From the IMG/VR virus record IMGVR_UViG_2545824714_000011, positions 1 to 17,579 of that record: DNA of 17,579 bases; one strand, 5' to 3'. The translations under genes were made by a program, and so were the position numbers. Source of the stretch: a virus (taxonomy: Duplodnaviria > Heunggongvirae > Uroviricota > Caudoviricetes). Within the stretch, counting starts at the first letter, position 1, and the number at the start of each line of letters is the position of its first letter. The notes under the pieces were generated by a model that had not been told where the DNA came from, ran no database searches, and worked only from the letters and a program-made list of their open reading frames with translations. Positions 6,124 through 15,836 of the stretch are shown here, piece by piece.

Positions 6124-8781
6124 ATGAGCACGAAATTTAAAACCGTTATCACTACTGCCGGAGCCGCGAAGCTGGCAGCCGCCACTGTCCCCGGCGGGAA
6201 AAAAGTAACTCTGTCTGCAATGGCCGTGGGTGACGGTAATGGCAAATTGCCGGTGCCGGATGCCGGTCAGACGAAACTGGTGCATGAGGTCTGGCGTCAC
6301 GCTCTGAATAAAGTCAGCGTGGATAACAAGAATAAAAACTATATCGTGGCTGAACTGGTTGTACCGCCAGAAGTGGGCGGCTTCTGGATGCGTGAGCTGG
6401 GTCTGTATGACGATGCCGGAACACTGATTGCGGTCGCTAACATGGCGGAAAGCTATAAACCTGAACTCGCTGAAGGCTCCGGGCGCGCGCAGACCTGCCG
6501 CATGGTTATTATTGTCAGCAACGTGGCGTCCGTTGAGCTGAGTATTGATGCCAGCACAGTGATGGCGACGCAGGATTACGTCGATGACAAAATCGCAGAG
6601 CATGAGCAGTCCCGCCGCCATCCTGACGCCACGCTGACAGAAAAAGGTTTTACTCAGTTAAGTAGCGCAACAAACAGCACCAGTGAAGAGCTGGCGGCAA
6701 CGCCAAAGGCAGTAAAAGCAGCCTATGACAATGCTGAAAAACGTATGCAGAAAGACCAGAACGGTGACGATATTCCAGATAAGGGCGCTTTTCTGGACAA
6801 TGTTGGCGTTACCAGCCTGACGTTTATGAAAAACAATGGCGAAATGCCGCTTGATGCTGACTTGAATACATTTGGTCCCGTTAAGGCTTATCTTGGCATC
6901 TGGTCTAAAGCAACATCCACCAACGCAACACTGGAGAAAAATTTCCCGGAAGATAATGCTGTCGGTGTGCTTGAGGTTTTTGCAGCTGGCAATTTTGCAG
7001 GCACGCAACGTTTTATCACGAGAGACGGCAATGTATACATGCGTAAACTCGCCAATAAGTGGAATGGCACTGATGGTCCGTGGGGCGTATGGCGTCACAC
7101 TCAATCAGCTACCCGCCCTTTGAGTACGACTATAGACCTGAATACGCTTGGAGCCGCTGAGCATCTTGGTTTATGGCGTAACAGTAGCTCGGCTATAGCT
7201 TCATATGAACGCAATTATCCAGAGGAAGGCGGCTTTGCTCAGGGGACGCTTGAGATCCTCGAAGGCGGGAATTATGGAAGAACGCAACGTTATACCACTC
7301 GTCGTGGGAATATGTACGTTCGCTGCCTTGCGGCAAGCTGGGATGCATCAAATCCGCAGTGGGAACCGTGGTTAAGAGTCGGTCATCAGTCAGAGAGCCG
7401 TTATTACGAAGGTGATTTGAATGTTCTAACCGACCCCGGTATTTACAGTGTTACAGGAAAGGCGACAAACGGTCCGATGCTGGACGCTGCTGGGGCGACA
7501 TTGCTTGGGATACTGGAAGTAATCAGGCGTTTTGATGGTGTATCTGTCTGGCAGCGTTACACAACCACAGGGAAATCAGAAACCACACAGGGGCGCACTT
7601 TTGAGCGCGTCTACGCCGGGAGCACATGGACCGAATGGCGAGAAGTGTATAACTCCTTTTCGTTGCCCCTGAATATGGGGATCGGTGGCGCAGTGGCAAA
7701 ACTCACCAGCCTGGACTGGCAGACCTACGATTTTGTGCCGGGCAGTCTGATAACCGTTCGGCTTGATAACATGACCAATATTCCCGACGGTATGGACTGG
7801 GGCGTCATTGATGGCAACCTGATAAACATCGCAGTTGGTCCGAGTGATGATTTCGGTACGGGGCGCTCAATGCATGTATGGCGCAGCACTGCAAGTAAAG
7901 CGAATTACCGCTTTTTTATGGTTCGCATTTCAGGAAATCCGGGAAGCCGCACGATTACGACAAGACGTGTGCCAATTATCGACGAAGCTCAGACATGGGC
8001 GGCGAAACAGACATTCAGCGGTGGTCTTTCTGGCGAACTATCCGGCAATGCTGCTACAGCAACAAAGCTGAAAACGGCAAGGACAATTAACGGCGTAAAA
8101 TTTGACGGCTCGGCAAATATTGAAGCGTTTCCGCCAGGTGTTCCGCTGCCGTGGCCATCAGATACGCCACCTGCAGGTTATGCAATCATGCAGGGGCAGA
8201 CGTTTGATAAGGCAGCATATCCGAAACTGGCTATTGCCTATCCTTCTGGTGTTATTCCAGATATGCGCGGCTGGACAATCAAGGGCAAACCCGCCAGTGG
8301 TCGGGCCGTATTGTCTCAGGAACAGGATGGCATTAAATCGCACACCCACAGTGCCAGCGCATCCAGTACGGATTTGGGTACGAAAACCACATCGTCGTTT
8401 GATTACGGTACTAAATCAACGAATAACACTGGTGCACATACCCACAATGTATCTGGTACTGCAAATAGTGCTGGCGCACATACACATACCGTTCCATTAA
8501 GGAGACCAAACAGTGGAGGTATGAATTTCGACTGGCTTGATGGTGCATCAAGTGGCACGGTGGTGGGGAATGGAACTGTGCCTTCTTCTGGCGCACATAC
8601 CCACTCAGTATCAGGTACCGCTACAAGTGCTGGGGCACATGCACACACTGTTGGTATTGGCGCTCATACGCACTCTGTTGCGATTGGTTCACATGGACAC
8701 ACCATCACCGTTAACGCTGCTGGTAACGCGGAAAACACCGTTAAAAACATCGCATTTAATTATATTGTGAGGCTTGCATAA
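6124..8781 (+). CDS. H: Tail fibre protein gpH, mosaic with a His-rich (HxH) repeat C-terminal tip domain
   Basis: 885 aa. N-terminus is P2 gpH-like ([28 protein letters not shown]). C-terminal part has repeated GAHTHxVSGTAxSAGAHxHTV units of the type seen in T4 gp37-like fibre tips. Stop overlaps the G start (TAATG). Confidence 0.9.
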
Positions 8782-9398
8782 TGGCATTCAGAATGAGTGA
8801 ACAATCACGTACTGTAAAAATTTATAACCTGCTGGCCGGAACTAATGAGTTTATTGGTGAAGGTGACGCATATATTCCACCTCATACAGGGCTGCCAGCC
8901 AATTCTACAGATATCGCCCCACCGGAAATTCCTGCTGGCTTTGTGGCAGTTTTTAACAGTGAAAATGAATCGTGGAATATTGTTGAAGACCATCGTGGTA
9001 AAACGGTCTATGACGTGGCATCGGGGGACGCGTTGTTTATTTCTGAACCCGGACCGCTACCAGAGAATGTCACCTGGTTGTCGCCAGCAGGGGAGTATCA
9101 GAAGTGGGACGGCGTATCCTGGGTGAAGGATGAGGAAGCAGAAAAACTGTTTCGGATACGGGAAGCGGAAGAGAAAAAGGCAAGGTTGATCCAGGAAGCA
9201 ACAGATAACATCGCAATTCTGCAGGATGCAGTTAATCTTGAAATAGCAACAAACGAGGAAAATTCACAACTGGATTCCTGGAGAAAATACAGAGTATTAG
9301 TGAGTAGAATTGACACCAGTACAGCTCCGGATGTCGTATGGCCAGAGCTGATGAATCAGGGTTATGTGCGGGAGGACGAGCAGATAACTTCAGACTGA
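8781..9398 (+). CDS. G: Tail fibre assembly chaperone gpG (Tfa)
   Basis: 205 aa, directly coupled to H. Conserved Tfa-like C-terminal region ([21 protein letters not shown]). Its 3' end overlaps the convergent acetyltransferase gene by 37 nt. Confidence 0.85.
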
Positions 9399-9925
9399 AA
9401 TTTAGTGATGAATGTTGAATCATCTGGAATATCATGCAATACCAATGCATGAGCACCTATTGTGACATTGTTTCCTATACGCACTTTGCCACCAAGAATG
9501 GTGGCATTACAACCAATGGTCACATTATGTCCTATAACAATATCCATATCATTAAAATCACCACGCAGCCCAATAGTTACCCCTGGTTTTATTGAACAAT
9601 TTTCACCGATTGTTACTTTGTGACCGATAACAACACTGTTGAGATAAGAAATATCAAAGCCTTTCCCTATATTTACAGTTAAAGGGACTGTTACATTATA
9701 TTTATCAAGAATGAAACGTTCTATTTTCCCCGCAATCTTCCGACAGTATCCGCCTTTATCAAAAAGGTATTTGGCTATGCGCCACCAAAATAAATAACGA
9801 ACTCTTCTATGTTTTATTGCGCGAACAATTGCCTTTCGCCAGGAGAAAGGACGCTCGCTACCGATTACTTCATAGTGAATACAATCTTTAAGTTCATTAA
9901 TATTCATATCTCTATTATTCAGCAT
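9362..9925 (-). CDS. Hexapeptide-repeat (left-handed beta-helix) O-acetyltransferase, WcaB/CysE-like; moron
   Basis: 187 aa with tandem hexapeptide repeats ([75 protein letters not shown]). Layout parallels colanic-acid acetyltransferase WcaB and serine acetyltransferase. Visibly AT-rich compared with flanking tail genes. No clear Shine-Dalgarno. Confidence 0.8.
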
Positions 9926-10095
9926 AAGATAATCATGTGACCAATTATTGTAATAATTTTAATGGTATGTTTCTACTGGCTATCCAGCGTGTCTGATGTC
10001 CAGTAACAAATCGTTAACACTGGTGCAATCAAATGGTGAGTGTTAAGACTGGCCACTTATTACCAGGTATGAGGGTATGAGTGGCCAGCATTAAA

Positions 10096-10590
10096 TCAGA
10101 ACAGCCCTTTAACTGAACTGGCCGCGCTGTTAAGGGATGATGTCACTTTATCTTTGAAGCCGGACAGCATATCGCTGAACGATGAGGATTGCAGGCGCTC
10201 CCGCAAATCCTCATCACAGCGTTCAAGGGTCAGTGAAAATTCTATCTTTTTCGCCTTACCGTAGCGATCAAACTCGGAACGGGTCGTATTCGTTTCGGTC
10301 AGGACATACATGCCGTAAATCTGCCCGACGCCATCAATAAGAGGCCAGGGGCGTCCTGTATACGCCTGCGTGGTCAGCAGCGACAGCGACACTTCGCCAC
10401 CTGTAATTTCAGGATAAAGCACACCAGAAAGAACGATGCGATCATCACCTGCACCGATATACTGCCAGCTTGCTGAACGGTTAACGCGTTCATTTTTCAC
10501 ATGCCGCCAGCTTTTGTTTTGCTGTAACTGCTGATGCGGCAGCGTGCGCAGCTCAAAAACAAACATGCCGTAGATCATCATCATGGCCAT
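10096..10590 (-). CDS. U: Tail protein gpU
   Basis: 164 aa. MAMMMIYGMFVFELRTLP...GVLYPEITGG...GMYV resembles P2 gpU as recalled. Follows the tape-measure gene on the minus strand. Confidence 0.85.
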   Translation of the reverse strand: MAMMMIYGMFVFELRTLPHQQLQQNKSWRHVKNERVNRSASWQYIGAGDDRIVLSGVLYPEITGGEVSLSLLTTQAYTGRPWPLIDGVGQIYGMYVLTETNTTRSEFDRYGKAKKIEFSLTLERCDEDLRERLQSSSFSDMLSGFKDKVTSSLNSAASSVKGLF

Positions 10591-10596
10591 GACTCC

Positions 10597-13438
10597 TCAA
10601 TCTTTATCGTAAAAACTGCCACGCCCGGCACGGGCGCGCCGTTCCATTTCTGCCCTGACCATTTCACCGACCAGTTTCGCCAGTTCGCGGGGATTCTGCG
10701 TAACAACGTTATGCAGATGAACATGAATTTCACCACCAAATCCGGAGGCAACAGGCTCCCGGTTACGGGAAGTTACAGGAACTGATGCCACTGGAGATCG
10801 TATGGCCTCCGCCACCGGGCGGGAGCTGGCCGCAACAACAGGGACCAGCGCCGGAGGCAGCGGAGCCGGGACCACGGGTGTGATATTAATTGCGGGGGCA
10901 GGCTTACTGACCTGCGCAATCTTCCGCTCCTGCCACTCTCCACGAACAGCAAGTGCGCGGGGCAGGTTCTTAAAGACAATATCGCCGGGGCCAATGCGTT
11001 TTTTCGTCTCATCAACCAGCTTACCTGTGTTATCAGCAATTTTGCTGAGTCTGCGTAGCGTACCGGTATTGCTGTCTGTGAGCGGTTTGTTGTCTTTGGG
11101 TTTATTACCTCCGGTGCCATTGCCATTTTCCACAGGCTTCGGCGGATTGATTTTCGCAATGTCTCCCTGAAACAAGGCAACCTTGTCCTGAAGAATGGCC
11201 GCACGCTGTGCGTCTTCGATTTTCTTTCTCGCCCTTTCCGCTTCATCCGGAAGGACGCCAAGTTTTTCAAGTATCCACGCCAGCGTATCCAGCAACATTT
11301 TTGCGGGCGTCAGAACAAGCTGTAACGCACCGCCAAGAACGTTACCGAATATCTCGCCAGCACTGGTACATTTATCCAGCGTTTCCTTGCTGGACTCCAT
11401 CGGTGACAGCAGCGATTTAAACCAGTTAAACACCTGGCTGATCCCGCTTCCGATTGTGTCAAAAACAGGACCAAACCGTTCAAAGGTTTCGCGCAACGGG
11501 GCCAGCCGCTCCATAATCCCGCTGAACACCCCGGCATAAAACGCCTTGATGGGATCCCAGTATTTCCAGATAAGAACGGCAGCTCCGGCAAGCGCAGCCA
11601 CGATAAGACCAACCGGACTGAACAACGCCCCGATGGCGCCTCCCAGTAAAGAAACGGAACCCGTCACCATTCCCCACAGCGCAGGCAACACCCTGACGAC
11701 ATTCATTGACCGGGTAAGAATGTCAAAACCAAGACGCAGGGTGGCCAGCTTCCCGTAAAGCACCCCAATAACCAGCGACAACGAGCCAATCGTTGCAGTC
11801 ATTGCCAGCAACGCACCGCCTGCTATCAGTAGCTGGCGCGTCAGTACCGGATGGGCCTGCGCCAGCGCCGTCACCTTTGAGACCACCCGCGTGAGCCACT
11901 GCGTGACAGAACGCAGCGGACCATCAATCAGATCTGCAATGCGGATACGCAGCCCTTCCCATGCACTGCCGAGTGATTTCAGGTCGCCATCAAGGTTATT
12001 GGCCATAACCTTTGCCGTGCGTTCAGCCTCACCGCGTGCGCCCTCAAGTTCTTTTCTCAGTTTGGGCAGGGAGCCGTCCCCCGCCGCATCAACGAGAGCC
12101 ATAAACGACGTGAAAGCCTCTTCCCCGGCAATGTCCTTAAAGAACGATACCCGGTCAACTTCCCCGTATTTACGGGTGGCTTTATAAAGGTCGGCCAGCA
12201 CATCTTCCATCGGGCGCATTTTGCCGTTCGCATCAGAAACTGACACCCCCAGCTCTTTCAGCGCTTCTGCTGCCGCCTTTGGCGGTGATGCCAGACGAGC
12301 CAGGCTGGCACGCATGGCCGTACCAGCATCGCTTCCGCGAAGACCATTATTGGCAAGCACGCCCGCCATCGCTGCGGCCTGCTCAAGCGATACCAAGCTT
12401 ACCCGCAACCGGACCGGCATACTTCATGGTTTCGCCCAGCGCGCGAAAATCAGTATTAGTACGGGTAAACACTGCTGTAAGCGTGTCACCGACCCGGTCC
12501 ATCTGGTCAGCGGAGAGGCCGAACTGCGTCAGGATATTGGAGCCAATATCAGCCGTCTCGCCAAGGTCCACACCACCAGCCAGCGCCATATTAAGAACAC
12601 CGGGCAATGCGGCCTGAATGGCCTGCGGAGTAAAACCAGCCATTGCCAGAAAGCTCTGCCCACTGGCGGCATCACTCGCAGTAAACTGTGTTTCAGAGCC
12701 AAGTTTTAACGCCTGCTCACGCAGCGCCTTAAACTGCGGGCTGTTTTTGTCGATTCGCGTCAGTGCCTGAACGCGGGACATCTCTTTGCCGAACCCGATC
12801 GCAGGCTGCAAAAAACGCCCGGCAGCATAGCCGCCCGCCGTTGCCGCACCAATTGCCAGCGCACCACCTGTTTTCAGTTTTCCCGCTGTTTCCTGCGCGC
12901 GCGAATACCGCTCACGCGCCCGCGTTACACGCGCAAGCGCCTGCCGTTCGCGTTCAAGCTGATTGTTGTACTGTTCGGTGCGTCTGATGGCCTGCTGGAT
13001 GGTGTTATCGCTGCCTGTCAGGGAAATGCCGTGGCGTTTCAGCTCTCCGCCAAGCTCCCGCATTTTCTGAATTTCCCGCGTGCGCGATTCATTCAGGCGT
13101 TCAAGCCGGGTGCTTAACTGCTGCATCAGCTTTTGTTGTTTTTCGCTGAGCACTGTACCCGTGCGTTGTAACTGATTAAGGGCGTTAAGCTGGCGTCGTG
13201 CTTTCAATATGCCAGCATCCGCTTTACTGACAGCGTCACGGGCGCGCTCAAATGAACGCGCCTGACGCTCGAGATTTTTGATCGCCCCCTGCGTTCGCTG
13301 GATGGAGTCACCAAACTGCCCCATCAGGCGGCGGGCGTTTTCGGCAGGCTGGGTCAGCCTGTCAACGGCGCTGAAAGCGACCCGGATATCAAGAGTCTTC
13401 ATTGTCTGCATTCCCGCTGCGAAGTGCCGCCCGCTCAC
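10597..13438 (-). pseudogene. T: Tail tape-measure protein gpT, interrupted by a frameshift (two overlapping ORFs)
   Basis: N-terminal ORF 12383-13438 (351 aa, coiled-coil-rich) and C-terminal ORF 10597-12420 (607 aa, with glycine/alanine-rich membrane-like segment) lie in different frames and overlap at 12383-12420. Read across the junction they would give ...KYAGPVAGKLG / SLEQAAAMAGVLANNG..., a continuous tape-measure-like sequence. True start may be the ATG at 13411 or 13402 rather than the GTG at 13438. Confidence 0.75.
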
Positions 13439-13552
13439 GCCAGCTAACCACTTCGCCGGGCGTCATCATGAAGATTTCGGCGGGCGACCAGTTAAAAATG
13501 GCGGCGATATCTGCCACCAGATCTTCGATGTGCTCAAAGCACACCAGGGTGA

Positions 13553-13927
13553 TTACGCTGCCGTCTCCTGCACGCTCTTCGCGCCAGAGTCTGGCTCGCT
13601 CATAAAATTTACAGCCACAGCGCACAACTGAATAAAATCGCGTGACGACATTTTTTTAATCATCACTTCATCCAGTCGTGGCGAGGTCACGCGAGGCAAC
13701 AGCGTGAACATGGTATCCGCTTTCAGATTCAGCACATCAGACAGCGACAGACCACGCAGGGATCCAGCCTGTTCAATAGCCCCGGTGATCTCCACATACG
13801 TGATTTTTTCGCCACCACGCTCAATTGGTCGGGTCAGTTTTACGCCACGTTCGACAGCCATATCCTCACCTGCCGTCACATCATCCGCCACGGTGTTATT
13901 CCGGGTTTCAGTATCGATGTCTTTCAT
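13553..13927 (-). CDS. E: Tail assembly chaperone gpE, with probable -1 frameshift product E' extending to 13389
   Basis: 124-aa ORF between the tube and tape-measure genes. An A7 run (minus strand, 13651-13657) sits in-frame as AAA AAA A. The -1 frame is open from 13655 down to a stop at 13389-13391, as expected for the conserved chaperone frameshift. Confidence 0.75.
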   Translation of the reverse strand: MKDIDTETRNNTVADDVTAGEDMAVERGVKLTRPIERGGEKITYVEITGAIEQAGSLRGLSLSDVLNLKADTMFTLLPRVTSPRLDEVMIKKMSSRDFIQLCAVAVNFMSEPDSGAKSVQETAA

Positions 13928-13982
13928 CAGTTGTCTCCTTTTCAGTCAGAGGCGACGCACTGCGCCGCCTGCATATTACTTA

Positions 13983-14495
13983 TCAGCCAAGCCCAAGCGC
14001 GGAACGGATGCGATCGGGCACAATGTCCTTGCCGTCCTTCCGGTAAATGAAGTTCAGCAGGTCAATCTCCCACAACGGGCGATCGTTAACACTCAGCTTG
14101 TAGTAGGTGTTTTTAATGGCGTAAGTGTGTGATGTGGCTTCGCCCTGTTTGGCTTCCCCCATATCAATTTCCGTCACGCGTCCGCGCATTTCGACTTCAT
14201 ACAGGTCGCTTTCTGCATCGGTGTAGTATTCACCCGCAAAACGCAGTAGCGTGCCGTCAATCGTGCCGCCATACTTAAGGAACAGCTCACGAACTGCGCC
14301 CCCCATGACAAAGCTCGCATCAAGCGCGGAGTCGTCCAGACCGAGATCAATACTTACCGCACCCATCATGCCACCACCCCGGTAGCTGTCGGTTTTGCGC
14401 GTCAGTTTAGGCAGGGTGACGGACGTCACCTTACCCACTTCGTTTTCACCATCCACAAACAGCGTAAAAAAGCGAAGATGTTTTGGTACAGCCAT
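13983..14495 (-). CDS. FII: Tail tube protein gpFII
   Basis: 170 aa, similar to P2 FII as recalled (VTLPKLTRK...YRGGGM...DLGLDD). Start overlaps the sheath gene stop (TGATG). Confidence 0.9.
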   Translation of the reverse strand: MAVPKHLRFFTLFVDGENEVGKVTSVTLPKLTRKTDSYRGGGMMGAVSIDLGLDDSALDASFVMGGAVRELFLKYGGTIDGTLLRFAGEYYTDAESDLYEVEMRGRVTEIDMGEAKQGEATSHTYAIKNTYYKLSVNDRPLWEIDLLNFIYRKDGKDIVPDRIRSALGLG

Positions 14496-15679
14496 CAGGC
14501 ACCTCCCAGCACCGCAAATGCGGGACCAAAGAATTCATCAGTAAACGACTGGTAAAGCTCCATGTCTTCCAGCGGAGGAACGGGCGTATATTTGTAGCGA
14601 ATACGCACACGCCCCTGACGTAAATTCGTGGTGCTGTTATCCACCACGTCATACCAGCACGACGCCCCAATCAGTTTCCCGGCAGTCACCAGTGAATCCA
14701 GTTTTGCCCTGATGGCACTGATAACATCCTTCACGTTCGCAGGCGTCAGTGGACTATCGATGGTTTCAAACTGCGCTTCCGCAATTGAATCAGCCAGCAC
14801 CTGTGCGGTTCGGGTATACACCTCAAAGATGTAGGCGTTCGTTTCCGGTGTGCGGTTGCCCCAGAAGCGGAACCCGTTGCGACGAATAATGGTCGTGATT
14901 TCTTTGTTGTTGAGGCTGTTGGCATCACTGTCTTCGGCCTGCAACGACCAGAACACATGACTGGACATCCCCAGCACATTTTTAACCGGAACGTTGGACA
15001 GCGATTTGTGCCAACCCTGCTCATGGTCAATGTACGCACGAAGGCCGCACGCATAGGCAGGCGCGGGGAACGTTTCGTTTTTGCCACTTTTCGGGTTGTA
15101 GGCGATGAAGTCCGGCCATAAGAGCATCACCTCACGTTCGTTGAATTTCTGGCGGTAGGTAATCGCCTCAGCCATCGTGTTACAGCCGTGACATGAGGCA
15201 TACACAAACGCGCGCAGTTTACCCGCAATCACGCACAGGGATTTTGTTACCGCCTCCGTGTCCAGCTCCGGCGCGGCCAGAATACGCGGACGGTATCCGA
15301 TGCTTTCATCCTGCTCTGCAACAAGCAGCGCATACATCCCCGTATAGCTGCCGTCAGATTCAGAACCACCGATAACCAGTTGATCCTGCGTTTTTCCGTC
15401 TTCTTCTTTGTGTTCAGCCACGCGAACGACGATCACCTTTGTGCTCACCTGGTCTGCGATGGCCTTAAGCGCACGATAAAGCGTCCCCGTTGTCCCGCAT
15501 TTTCCCAGCACGTCATTGACGCGGGTCAGCAGTGTGGGCTTGTTCAGCGGGAACAGCTTCGCGTCCGCATCATCCGCCGTTGCCACGATACCGATAACAC
15601 TGGAATCAACATCATTAATCGCTGTTACCAGGTCGGTATTTTCCGTAACACGGGCACCATGAAAACGAGTTTCACTCAT
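14495..15679 (-). CDS. FI: Contractile tail sheath protein gpFI
   Basis: 394 aa, similar to P2 FI as recalled (FPLNKP...KLRAF...WPDF...DHEQGWHKSLSNV...IRRNGFRFWGNRT...YTRTAQV...YTPVPPLE). GGGG Shine-Dalgarno upstream. Confidence 0.9.
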   Translation of the reverse strand: MSETRFHGARVTENTDLVTAINDVDSSVIGIVATADDADAKLFPLNKPTLLTRVNDVLGKCGTTGTLYRALKAIADQVSTKVIVVRVAEHKEEDGKTQDQLVIGGSESDGSYTGMYALLVAEQDESIGYRPRILAAPELDTEAVTKSLCVIAGKLRAFVYASCHGCNTMAEAITYRQKFNEREVMLLWPDFIAYNPKSGKNETFPAPAYACGLRAYIDHEQGWHKSLSNVPVKNVLGMSSHVFWSLQAEDSDANSLNNKEITTIIRRNGFRFWGNRTPETNAYIFEVYTRTAQVLADSIAEAQFETIDSPLTPANVKDVISAIRAKLDSLVTAGKLIGASCWYDVVDNSTTNLRQGRVRIRYKYTPVPPLEDMELYQSFTDEFFGPAFAVLGGA

Positions 15680-15836
15680 AGCTTCAGCCCCTTGTATCCG
15701 TTAAATGATTCGGCAACAATCATCACCCACCACGCGCGTAATCTCACCCCTGCGCCGTTCTCTCGCCACGGCGACAACAAAAAGCAGTAACCCCCTCCGC
15801 ACGCACATGCGACCATGCCGCACAGGGAGGGAACAG

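Follow-up and report, generated by a model that had tools for sequence, protein, structure and literature searches.

The window, a 17,579-nucleotide stretch of Caudoviricetes DNA (IMG/VR record IMGVR_UViG_2545824714_000011), contains homologues of V, W, J, I, H, G, FI, FII, E/E', T, U and D, together making up a P2-like (Peduoviridae) contractile-tail module (Table 1). ORF layout, PHROGs and Pfam all place V-W-J-I-H-G and D-ogr on the plus strand and the acetyltransferase, U, T, E/E', FII and FI on the minus strand, bearing out the strand split described in the first-pass annotation of this DNA. The V-G baseplate/tail-fibre set (3765-9398, plus strand) is collinear with that of intact prophages.

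Organization and defects of the tail module

The P2 F operon, FI-FII-E-E'-T-U-D, consists of the same genes, likewise with E/E' as a frameshift pair and with ogr following D. By tblastn, FI, FII, U, D and V of P2 and the window are 42-49% identical. The annotated P2 record indeed carries V to G and FI-FII-E-T-U-D-ogr on a single strand, with D as the last gene of the F operon, whereas in the window FI-U lies inverted and D-ogr stands apart as a divergent unit of its own; D is no longer co-transcribed with FI-U. The intergenic region across which FI and D diverge measures 157 bp if D starts at the ATG at 15837, which is the start point of all homologues in tblastn. An in-frame upstream ATG at 15705 was considered as the D start and lacked homologue support. 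For E', a candidate slippery heptamer, A_AAT_TTT, lies near 13596-13602, and relatives of the window have a 'GpE family' CDS annotated separately. The window Ogr has 86 residues versus 72 in P2 Ogr and, when aligned to its counterparts in other phages, keeps the cysteine motif. No Rfam family matched the window.

Table 1 Features of the window, with strand and supporting evidence.
Feature	Position	Strand	Evidence or remark
Internal deletion junction	3743-3750		8 bp overlapping homology; blastn against P88_4B11
V	3765-4346	+	ORF; Pfam match
W	4343-4693	+	ORF
J	4697-5593	+	ORF
I	5586-6113	+	ORF
H	6124-8781	+	ORF
G	8781-9398	+	ORF; PHROG match
Hexapeptide (left-handed beta-helix) acetyltransferase	9362-9925	-	Pfam Hexapep
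Hairpin, 18-nt arms, 83% complementary	10043-10094		Repeat search; directly downstream of U stop codon
U, tail gene	10096-10590	-	phrog_76, E=5e-75; 99-100% identical to P88 U
T, tape-measure gene	10597-13402	-	PHROG tape-measure matches, both halves
E', -1 frame extension of E	frame open 13389-13625	-	Sequence and ORFs
E, tail chaperone gene	13553-13927	-	phrog_103; ORFs
FII, tail tube gene	13983-14495	-	phrog_55, E=8e-60; 'major tail tube protein' in relatives' annotation
FI, tail sheath gene	14495-15679	-	phrog_23, E=3e-125
FI-D divergent intergenic region	15680-15836		157 bp; footprint alignments
Candidate -10 hexamer GATGAT, FI promoter (pF)	15719-15724	-	Centred 46 bp from box centre; predicted start ~15712
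Ogr-type box variant TCTCTCGCCACGGCGACA (TCT-N12-ACA)	15759-15776		Centre 15767.5; aligns with relatives' exact boxes
Candidate -10 hexamer GACCAT (preceded by TGc), D-ogr promoter (pD)	15811-15816	+	Centred 46 bp from box centre; predicted start ~15823
D, tail gene (late control D / VgrG-like hub)	15837-16946	+	phrog_52, E=3e-167; 99-100% identical to P88 D
ogr, Ogr/Delta zinc-finger late-gene activator	16989-17249	+	PF04606

The window carries a defective P2-family prophage belonging to the P88-like (Xuanwuvirus) branch. Its order, G(+) / U-T-E-FII-FI(-) / D-ogr-hok(+), is that of Xuanwuvirus, and nucleotide identity to P88 amounts to 95-96% over 10091-17579, 96% at the S/V joint (3743-4400) and 92% in the early region, while H, G and the cargo gene differ and about half of the genome is deleted. 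In blastn comparison with P88_4B11 (L001), window 2618-3750 corresponds to 27128-28267 and window 3743-4400 to 6980-7637; the deletion thus fuses early-region DNA to S at its 3' end, immediately before V. This copy lacks the genes for replication, head and lysis as well as R/S, with R, S and X having gone in the internal deletion. In addition, T is broken by a 2-bp deletion at 12389/12390, as seen in alignment with P88 and the FDAARGOS_1303 prophage, and reads as two ORFs (12383-13438 and 10597-12420). The 2-bp deletion was absent from all 69 related copies examined and is private to the window. The tail module is therefore not fully intact, and with half of the phage genome deleted and T frameshifted, this copy cannot make particles, whereas P88 is complete and viable.

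Gene order in related phages

Window positions 10091-17579 match Escherichia phages P88 and P88_4B11 and Citrobacter phage PhiSM at 95-96% identity as a single 7.5-kb collinear stretch, and the strands agree with the annotation of these phages, which likewise have U-T-E-FII-FI and D-ogr-hok on opposite strands, with a 157-bp FI-D gap and the same TCT-N12-ACA box. P88 and PhiSM are functional, viable phages that form plaques (PMC5285337; PMC6456863). The acetyltransferase layout recurs in an intact-looking prophage, and in 42 phage records the divergent FI/D junction was covered to at least 80% in one place. The divergent examples inspected come from five Peduoviridae genera (Xuanwuvirus, Novemvirus, Senquatrovirus, Reginaelenavirus and Reipivirus) and from Serratia KSP20. 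Salmonella phage SEN4 (Senquatrovirus), Enterobacter phage phiT5282H (Novemvirus), the Klebsiella phages Kp4871-3 (Reginaelenavirus) and Kp4845-1 (Reipivirus), and KSP20, whose record is partial, share both the G / U..FI(-) / D-ogr(+) order and a box in the FI-D gap with the window, although their FI and D proteins are just 55-77% identical to its own.

The FI-U block and D were divergent in 80 of 80 IMG/VR loci, with an FI-D gap of 156-157 bp in every one. Among species-genome loci, which like those behind the box counts below are related sequences and not independent samples, FI was divergent wherever D was nearer to that of the window (61/61), and U-D was collinear wherever D was nearer to that of P2 (19/19). 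Gene order thus follows the D phylogeny perfectly. P2, Ralstonia RsoM1USA and Burkholderia KS5 have the collinear order, which together with the clade-wide divergent order points to one old, fixed inversion. The inverted sheath-tube-tape-measure block is the normal, ancient order of a large P2-related group comprising P88, PhiSM, SEN4 and their relatives, and is not peculiar to the window. Explicit mention of an inversion is absent from the P88, PhiSM and SEN4 papers.

The FI-D intergenic region

A pattern search confirmed the first-pass observation that the exact Ogr box, TGT-N12-ACA, is missing from the FI-D gap; in the whole window it occurs twice, at 8676 and 9810. The suggestion drawn from this, that regulation may differ from P2 for want of a box, is not supported, since a one-mismatch variant, TCT-N12-ACA, sits in the position orthologous to the exact boxes of relatives and aligns with those of SEN4, Kp4871-3 and KSP20, which carry the canonical TGT half-site. 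P2's own annotated pF and pP/pO sites, TGT-N12-CCA, are themselves one mismatch away. The half-sites of the box are invariant and 7 of the 12 spacer positions variable. A T[GC]T-N12-ACA match was present in the gap in 55 of 61 species-level loci and missing in six, an enrichment of about 15-fold given that 0.056 matches per 160 nt are the background. One-mismatch matches are frequent by chance, with six in the 157-bp gap once spacing is relaxed, and the Ogr box by itself is weak evidence.

The TCT variant is also found in the portal/scaffold gap of P88-type genomes, and in five of five lineages the P-O region of a genome has the same box type as its FI-D region. With its flanks, the motif is almost confined to these two regions in each genome. 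No third box was found upstream of V, the pattern giving only isolated matches outside the P-O and FI-D sites; as S and V abut in the divergent clade, the O promoter may also serve V-G. One feature of an Ogr/Delta-dependent late promoter is present in that the window encodes a cognate Ogr/Delta zinc-finger activator (PF04606, E=5e-14). Two further observations were set aside. A perfect dyad, CGCCGT-N9-ACGGCG (15753-15773), was considered as an operator and is not kept even within the genus (variants ATTCT... and ...CGACCCGGCG). The Ogr residue following the QCxN motif was examined for co-variation with box type; TCT goes with L in 16 of 17 loci, but L also occurs with nine TGT boxes, a weak and phylogeny-confounded association.

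The layout of the gap resembles P2 pP/pO, where a single dyad box sits halfway between late genes that diverge from it; a divergent PP/PO pair with one shared box has been described for P2-like phages (PMC3931495). In P2, the mapped pP/pO starts lie 55.5 bp and the -10 hexamers 46 bp on each side of the box centre, and the predicted elements of the window share this geometry. The P2 promoters have been mapped experimentally, while those of the window are predicted from comparative sequence and its left half-site is TCT instead of TGT. The candidate pF has the geometry of the mapped P2 promoters pP, pO and pF; its -10 position is invariant in the genus and reads GATTAT, GAATAT or GATGAT in relatives. 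The box lies about 80-88 bp from the FI start codon (88.5 bp in the window), compared to 82.5 bp in P2. Both proposed -10 hexamers match TATAAT poorly, as do those of P2, and a sigma-70 consensus scan of the gap found nothing, as expected for activator-dependent promoters.

These comparisons show that an ancestor of this branch and of a much larger clade of P2-like phages of Enterobacterales inverted a segment containing the F promoter and FI-FII-E/E'-T-U, and that G(+) / U-T-E-FII-FI(-) / D-ogr(+) has been the normal working order from then on. The activator site of the F promoter was carried along with FI and set beside D. This site, about 55 bp from each predicted start, would now activate late promoters on both sides, pF upstream of FI-U and pD upstream of D-ogr. 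We infer that one Ogr site drives both units; where transcription starts, whether either promoter depends on Ogr and whether the site acts towards D are all predictions. In the P88 lineage, both late intergenic regions have TCT in place of TGT as the left half-site. We consider the chances about even that the inversion turned a one-directional F promoter into a bidirectional one, with ogr kept in positive feedback, and that a subset of the clade including P88 and the window shifted the half-site from TGT to TCT at all late promoters. If true, the latter shift would imply a natural change in the DNA specificity of Ogr.

An ancient inversion could also have left a box that serves only the FI promoter, with D-ogr read from an independent, Ogr-independent promoter. 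P2 ogr, with a promoter to itself, sets a precedent for activator-independent expression nearby; on the D side the -10 (GACCAT) is weak, and lineages differ in how far the box lies from the start codon of D. Against this, a conserved block on the D side (CGCGCGC-ATG-aACCAT) keeps a constant distance of 46 bp to the box centre from one lineage to another, the symmetric geometry is identical to that of P2 pP/pO, and D is a structural late gene needing late, high expression. We therefore regard an Ogr-independent D-ogr unit as unlikely, and favour the shared site.

Origin of the inversion and the G/U junction

The polarity of the event depends on few outgroups, and the divergent order might in principle be ancestral and the collinear order of P2 derived. 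Nothing speaks directly for this, and RsoM1USA and KS5, P2-like phages of betaproteobacteria, share the collinear order with P2, as do the R-type pyocin and phiCTX clusters, making it very improbable.

At the G/U junction, the acetyltransferase ORF shares 37 bp with the 3' end of G and has a GC content of 0.356. It resembles CysE/WcaB/EpsC-like NCBIfam profiles, with every match below the curated cut-offs, and serine acetyltransferases in the PDB (E=6e-12). Related IMG/VR loci carry a DNA invertase (n=22), neither gene (n=15) or an acetyltransferase (n=13) in this slot. In place of the window's acetyltransferase, P88 carries a DNA invertase together with an invertible fibre segment between G and U; the G-U junctions of SEN4 and phiT5282H, unlike that of the window, are without a cargo gene. 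The acetyltransferase is a swappable, low-GC cargo gene at a convergent junction, outside the ancestral inverted block. The first-pass reading of an inversion relative to P2 accordingly stands for the FI-U block, with breakpoints at the G/cargo and U/D junctions, and fails for the acetyltransferase as a member of that block. P88 homology stops at window position 10091, and the hairpin at the end of U, which lies in the cargo-specific spacer, is a possible terminator.

The presence of an invertase right beside U in P88-type phages, as in those 22 loci, and of a neighbouring switchable fibre segment in P88 raises the idea that the FI-U block is itself a programmed segment flipped by a Gin/Cin/Hin-type enzyme. 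This has next to no probability: the window contains no invertase, no inverted-repeat crossover sites surround the block, and 141 of 141 divergent-clade loci have a single orientation, none being flipped. Equally negligible, and already refuted by the related intact phages, is an assembly error or a recent inversion specific to this genome. A rearrangement of this kind had been implied by the first-pass annotation, and the order does differ from that of the P2 textbook case; but the junctions are the same in isolated phage genomes, complete E. coli chromosomes and 80/80 IMG/VR contigs, the arrangement is common to many genera whose proteins are 55-80% identical, and no inverted repeats join the breakpoints (9900-10100 and 15680-15840), as expected for an old event.

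Taken together, we place roughly 85% probability on a joint explanation in which the window is a defective P88-like prophage with an ancient fixed inversion, a single Ogr site for two divergent late promoters and a cargo slot at G/U. The main value of the finding is a correction, in that P2 is no universal template for P2-like prophages. Since a very large Enterobacterales clade carries the genes from sheath to U on the opposite strand, this layout does not warrant a rearrangement or misassembly flag. The late activator site, being a dyad, can work in both directions, which is seemingly why the operon inversion was tolerated, and the FI-D gap may offer a simple, testable case, of modest interest, of promoter re-use after genome rearrangement.

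Gene order in the window and in related phages

Gene calls were made over the whole window from a six-frame ORF map with PHROG and Pfam assignments (see table). Together with the annotated P2 record, they bear out the genes and strands called in the first-pass annotation. FI and D diverge across a gap of 157 bp, whereas in P2 the same genes all lie on one strand and D closes the F operon.

Genes and candidate regulatory elements of the window
Feature	Position	Strand	Basis
V	3765-4346	+	ORF map, PHROG/Pfam
W, J, I	between V and H	+	ORF map, PHROG/Pfam
H	6124-8781	+	ORF map, PHROG/Pfam
G	8781-9398	+	ORF map, PHROG/Pfam
Hexapeptide acetyltransferase	9362-9925	-	ORF map, PHROG/Pfam
U	10096-10590	-	ORF map, PHROG/Pfam
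T (tape measure)	between U and E	-	ORF map, PHROG/Pfam
E, with E' frame	13553-13927	-	ORF map, PHROG/Pfam
FII	13983-14495	-	ORF map, PHROG/Pfam
FI	14495-15679	-	ORF map, PHROG/Pfam
Candidate -10, GATGAT	15724-15719	-	46 bp from box centre
Candidate Ogr box, TCT-N12-ACA, TCTCTCGCCACGGCGACA (next bases ACAAAAAGC)	15759-15776		FI-D gap alignment
Candidate -10, TGcGACCAT	hexamer 15811-15816	+	46 bp from box centre
D	15837-16946	+	ORF map, PHROG/Pfam
ogr	16989-17249	+	ORF map, PHROG/Pfam

The first-pass annotation had read the block as an inversion relative to P2; related intact phages carry this order as their normal one. In a megablast search against phage genomes, window 10091-17579 gave a single collinear match at 95-96% identity to Escherichia phage P88, P88_4B11 and Citrobacter phage PhiSM, in whose annotation U, T, E', E, FII and FI share one strand and D, ogr and hok lie on the opposite one. 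P88 can be induced and grows lytically on new hosts (PMC5285337), and spontaneous release, plaque formation and lysogeny of K-12 are documented for PhiSM (PMC6456863). An intact-looking E. coli prophage, FDAARGOS_1303, is laid out exactly as the window, acetyltransferase included.

When FI, the gap and D were used as one query in a sensitive blastn search of phage records, at least 80% of the query was covered in one place in 42 records. The records examined belong to Xuanwuvirus, Novemvirus (phiT5282H), Senquatrovirus (SEN4), Reginaelenavirus (Kp4871-3) and Reipivirus (Kp4845-1), plus Serratia phage KSP20, and strands were verified by tblastn in every one. A D query of IMG/VR fetched 80 loci, and FI was likewise divergent in every one, across a gap of 156-157 bp. 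In a scan of one genome per species, with loci split by D similarity, FI lay divergently upstream of D in 61/61 loci whose D is nearer that of the window (hosts: Salmonella, Serratia, Erwinia, Pantoea, Klebsiella, Xenorhabdus, Photorhabdus, Providencia, Yersinia, Morganella and others), while U lay directly upstream on the same strand in 19/19 loci whose D is nearer that of P2.

The collinear order is ancestral, since P2 and the betaproteobacterial phages RsoM1USA and KS5 all have it. Given these outgroups and the clean split by D similarity, the divergent order is therefore the mark of one old, fixed inversion. The inverted repeats that the first-pass annotation had proposed to look for at the breakpoints were searched at both junctions, and none joins the two, as expected for so old an event. 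In loci L098, L100, L101, L105 and L107-L110, D is ~80% identical to that of the window and the adjoining divergent FI only 42-49%; the sheath module has been swapped between lineages with the divergent arrangement kept.

RefSeq D is cut to 801 nt and overlapped by a 'hypothetical protein' pseudogene in two E. coli chromosomes (L003, 21119-21972; L004, 24353-25206); the full 369-aa frame is intact in both, and in L004 100% identical to the window D; the short version seems to be an artefact of annotation. A candidate -1 slippery heptamer, A_AAT_TTT, was read by eye on the minus strand close to where E ends (approximately 13596-13602). A shift there would enter the E' frame (open 13389-13625), in keeping with the conserved tail-chaperone (E/E') frameshift known from P2. 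A Hok/Gef-family toxin gene, also present in P88 and E. coli prophages, starts at the window end (~17441-17579) and runs off it; no Sok-type RNA was found at Rfam threshold in a scan of the window.

A cargo slot and a defective prophage copy

The acetyltransferase had been counted as a member of the inverted block, a grouping contradicted by the break in P88 homology 5 bp past the U stop codon (megablast) and by slot contents that vary among relatives. At the G|U junction P88 carries an invertible fibre segment and DNA invertase, unlike SEN4 and phiT5282H, where the slot is empty; among the IMG/VR loci, it contains an invertase in 22, the acetyltransferase in 13 and neither in 15. The gene is thus cargo separate from the block. 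Its cassette occupies the convergent junction (9362-10095), the gene has a low GC content (0.356) and overlaps the G 3' end by 37 bp, and its product is a CysE/WcaB/EpsC-like hexapeptide transferase that falls under all curated family cut-offs.

btuC and ihfA flank the element, as they do in E. coli L2_E1649. Window 2618-3750 corresponds to the early region of P88 and 3743-4400 to the end of S together with V, so that the early region (DUF4761 and DUF4754 genes) is fused to the S end/V start at a deletion junction (3743-3750) where the two matches overlap by 8 bp. The genes for replication, partition, portal, terminase, capsid and lysis, as well as R and S, have therefore been lost; lacking replication, head, lysis and tail-completion genes, the element is a defective remnant keeping integrase and tail genes. 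Compared with P88 and the FDAARGOS_1303 prophage, both intact there, T shows a 2-bp deletion at 12389/12390 and is split into two ORFs that overlap (12383-13438 and 10597-12420). The deletion is shared by 0/69 related copies and represents a pseudogene private to this copy or else an error of sequencing.

A candidate Ogr box between FI and D

A pattern search agreed with the first-pass annotation that the FI-D gap holds no exact TGT-N12-ACA. The altered regulation suggested from this is not supported, as the missing exact box is weak evidence alone: the annotated pF and pP/pO sites of P2 themselves read TGT-N12-CCA. Aligning the gap across six diverged lineages revealed a conserved central block, with exact TGT-N12-ACA in SEN4, Kp4871-3 and KSP20 and TCT-N12-ACA in the window, P88, phiT5282H and Kp4845-1. 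The portal/terminase-scaffold (P-O) gaps of the same phages align to the experimentally defined shared activator site of P2, and their box type equals that of the FI-D gap in 5/5 lineages. TCT, ACA and the right flank do not vary across the genus, in contrast to 7 of the 12 spacer positions. T[GC]T-N12-ACA occurs ~80 bp from the FI start codon in 55/61 divergent gaps of the species scan, against a background rate of 0.056 per 160 nt. Genome-wide, a flank-inclusive pattern hit the P-O and FI-D regions and otherwise isolated extra matches, a result partly circular, as the pattern was built from those sites.

The geometry resembles that of P2, where two mapped start sites each lie 55.5 bp from the centre of the one P-O site, and the -10 hexamers have their centres 46 bp away on either side. 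In the window, -10-like hexamers flank 15767.5 at exactly 46 bp in each direction; neither varies within the genus, and relatives carry similar hexamers at equal distances. In other P2-like phages, divergent PP and PO promoters are described as sharing one box (PMC3931495). Together with the P-O match, the conservation and the 55/61 count, this leads us to infer from sequence that the F-promoter box travelled with FI during the inversion and would now serve both pF (FI-U) and a new pD (D-ogr).

The window Ogr has 86 aa against 72 in P2, the extra length being a C-terminal extension. Among related loci L095-L153, 16/17 TCT-box genomes have L directly after the QCxN motif, and TGT-box genomes have F (10), L (9), M (7), I (7) or V (1) there, an association with box type that is suggestive and confounded by phylogeny.

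The divergent FI-U block is real but ordinary, the standard order in a large phage group that has been sequenced before and in part characterised; only the predicted bidirectional use of one Ogr site and the TCT half-site variant are mildly new. S adjoins or overlaps V in L004 (12023-12038) and at the S/V joints of P88-type genomes, a clade in which no activator box was found ahead of V; P2, in contrast, has a separate pV promoter. Transcription of V-G may come from the O promoter there, in which case only two bidirectional late control regions would remain.
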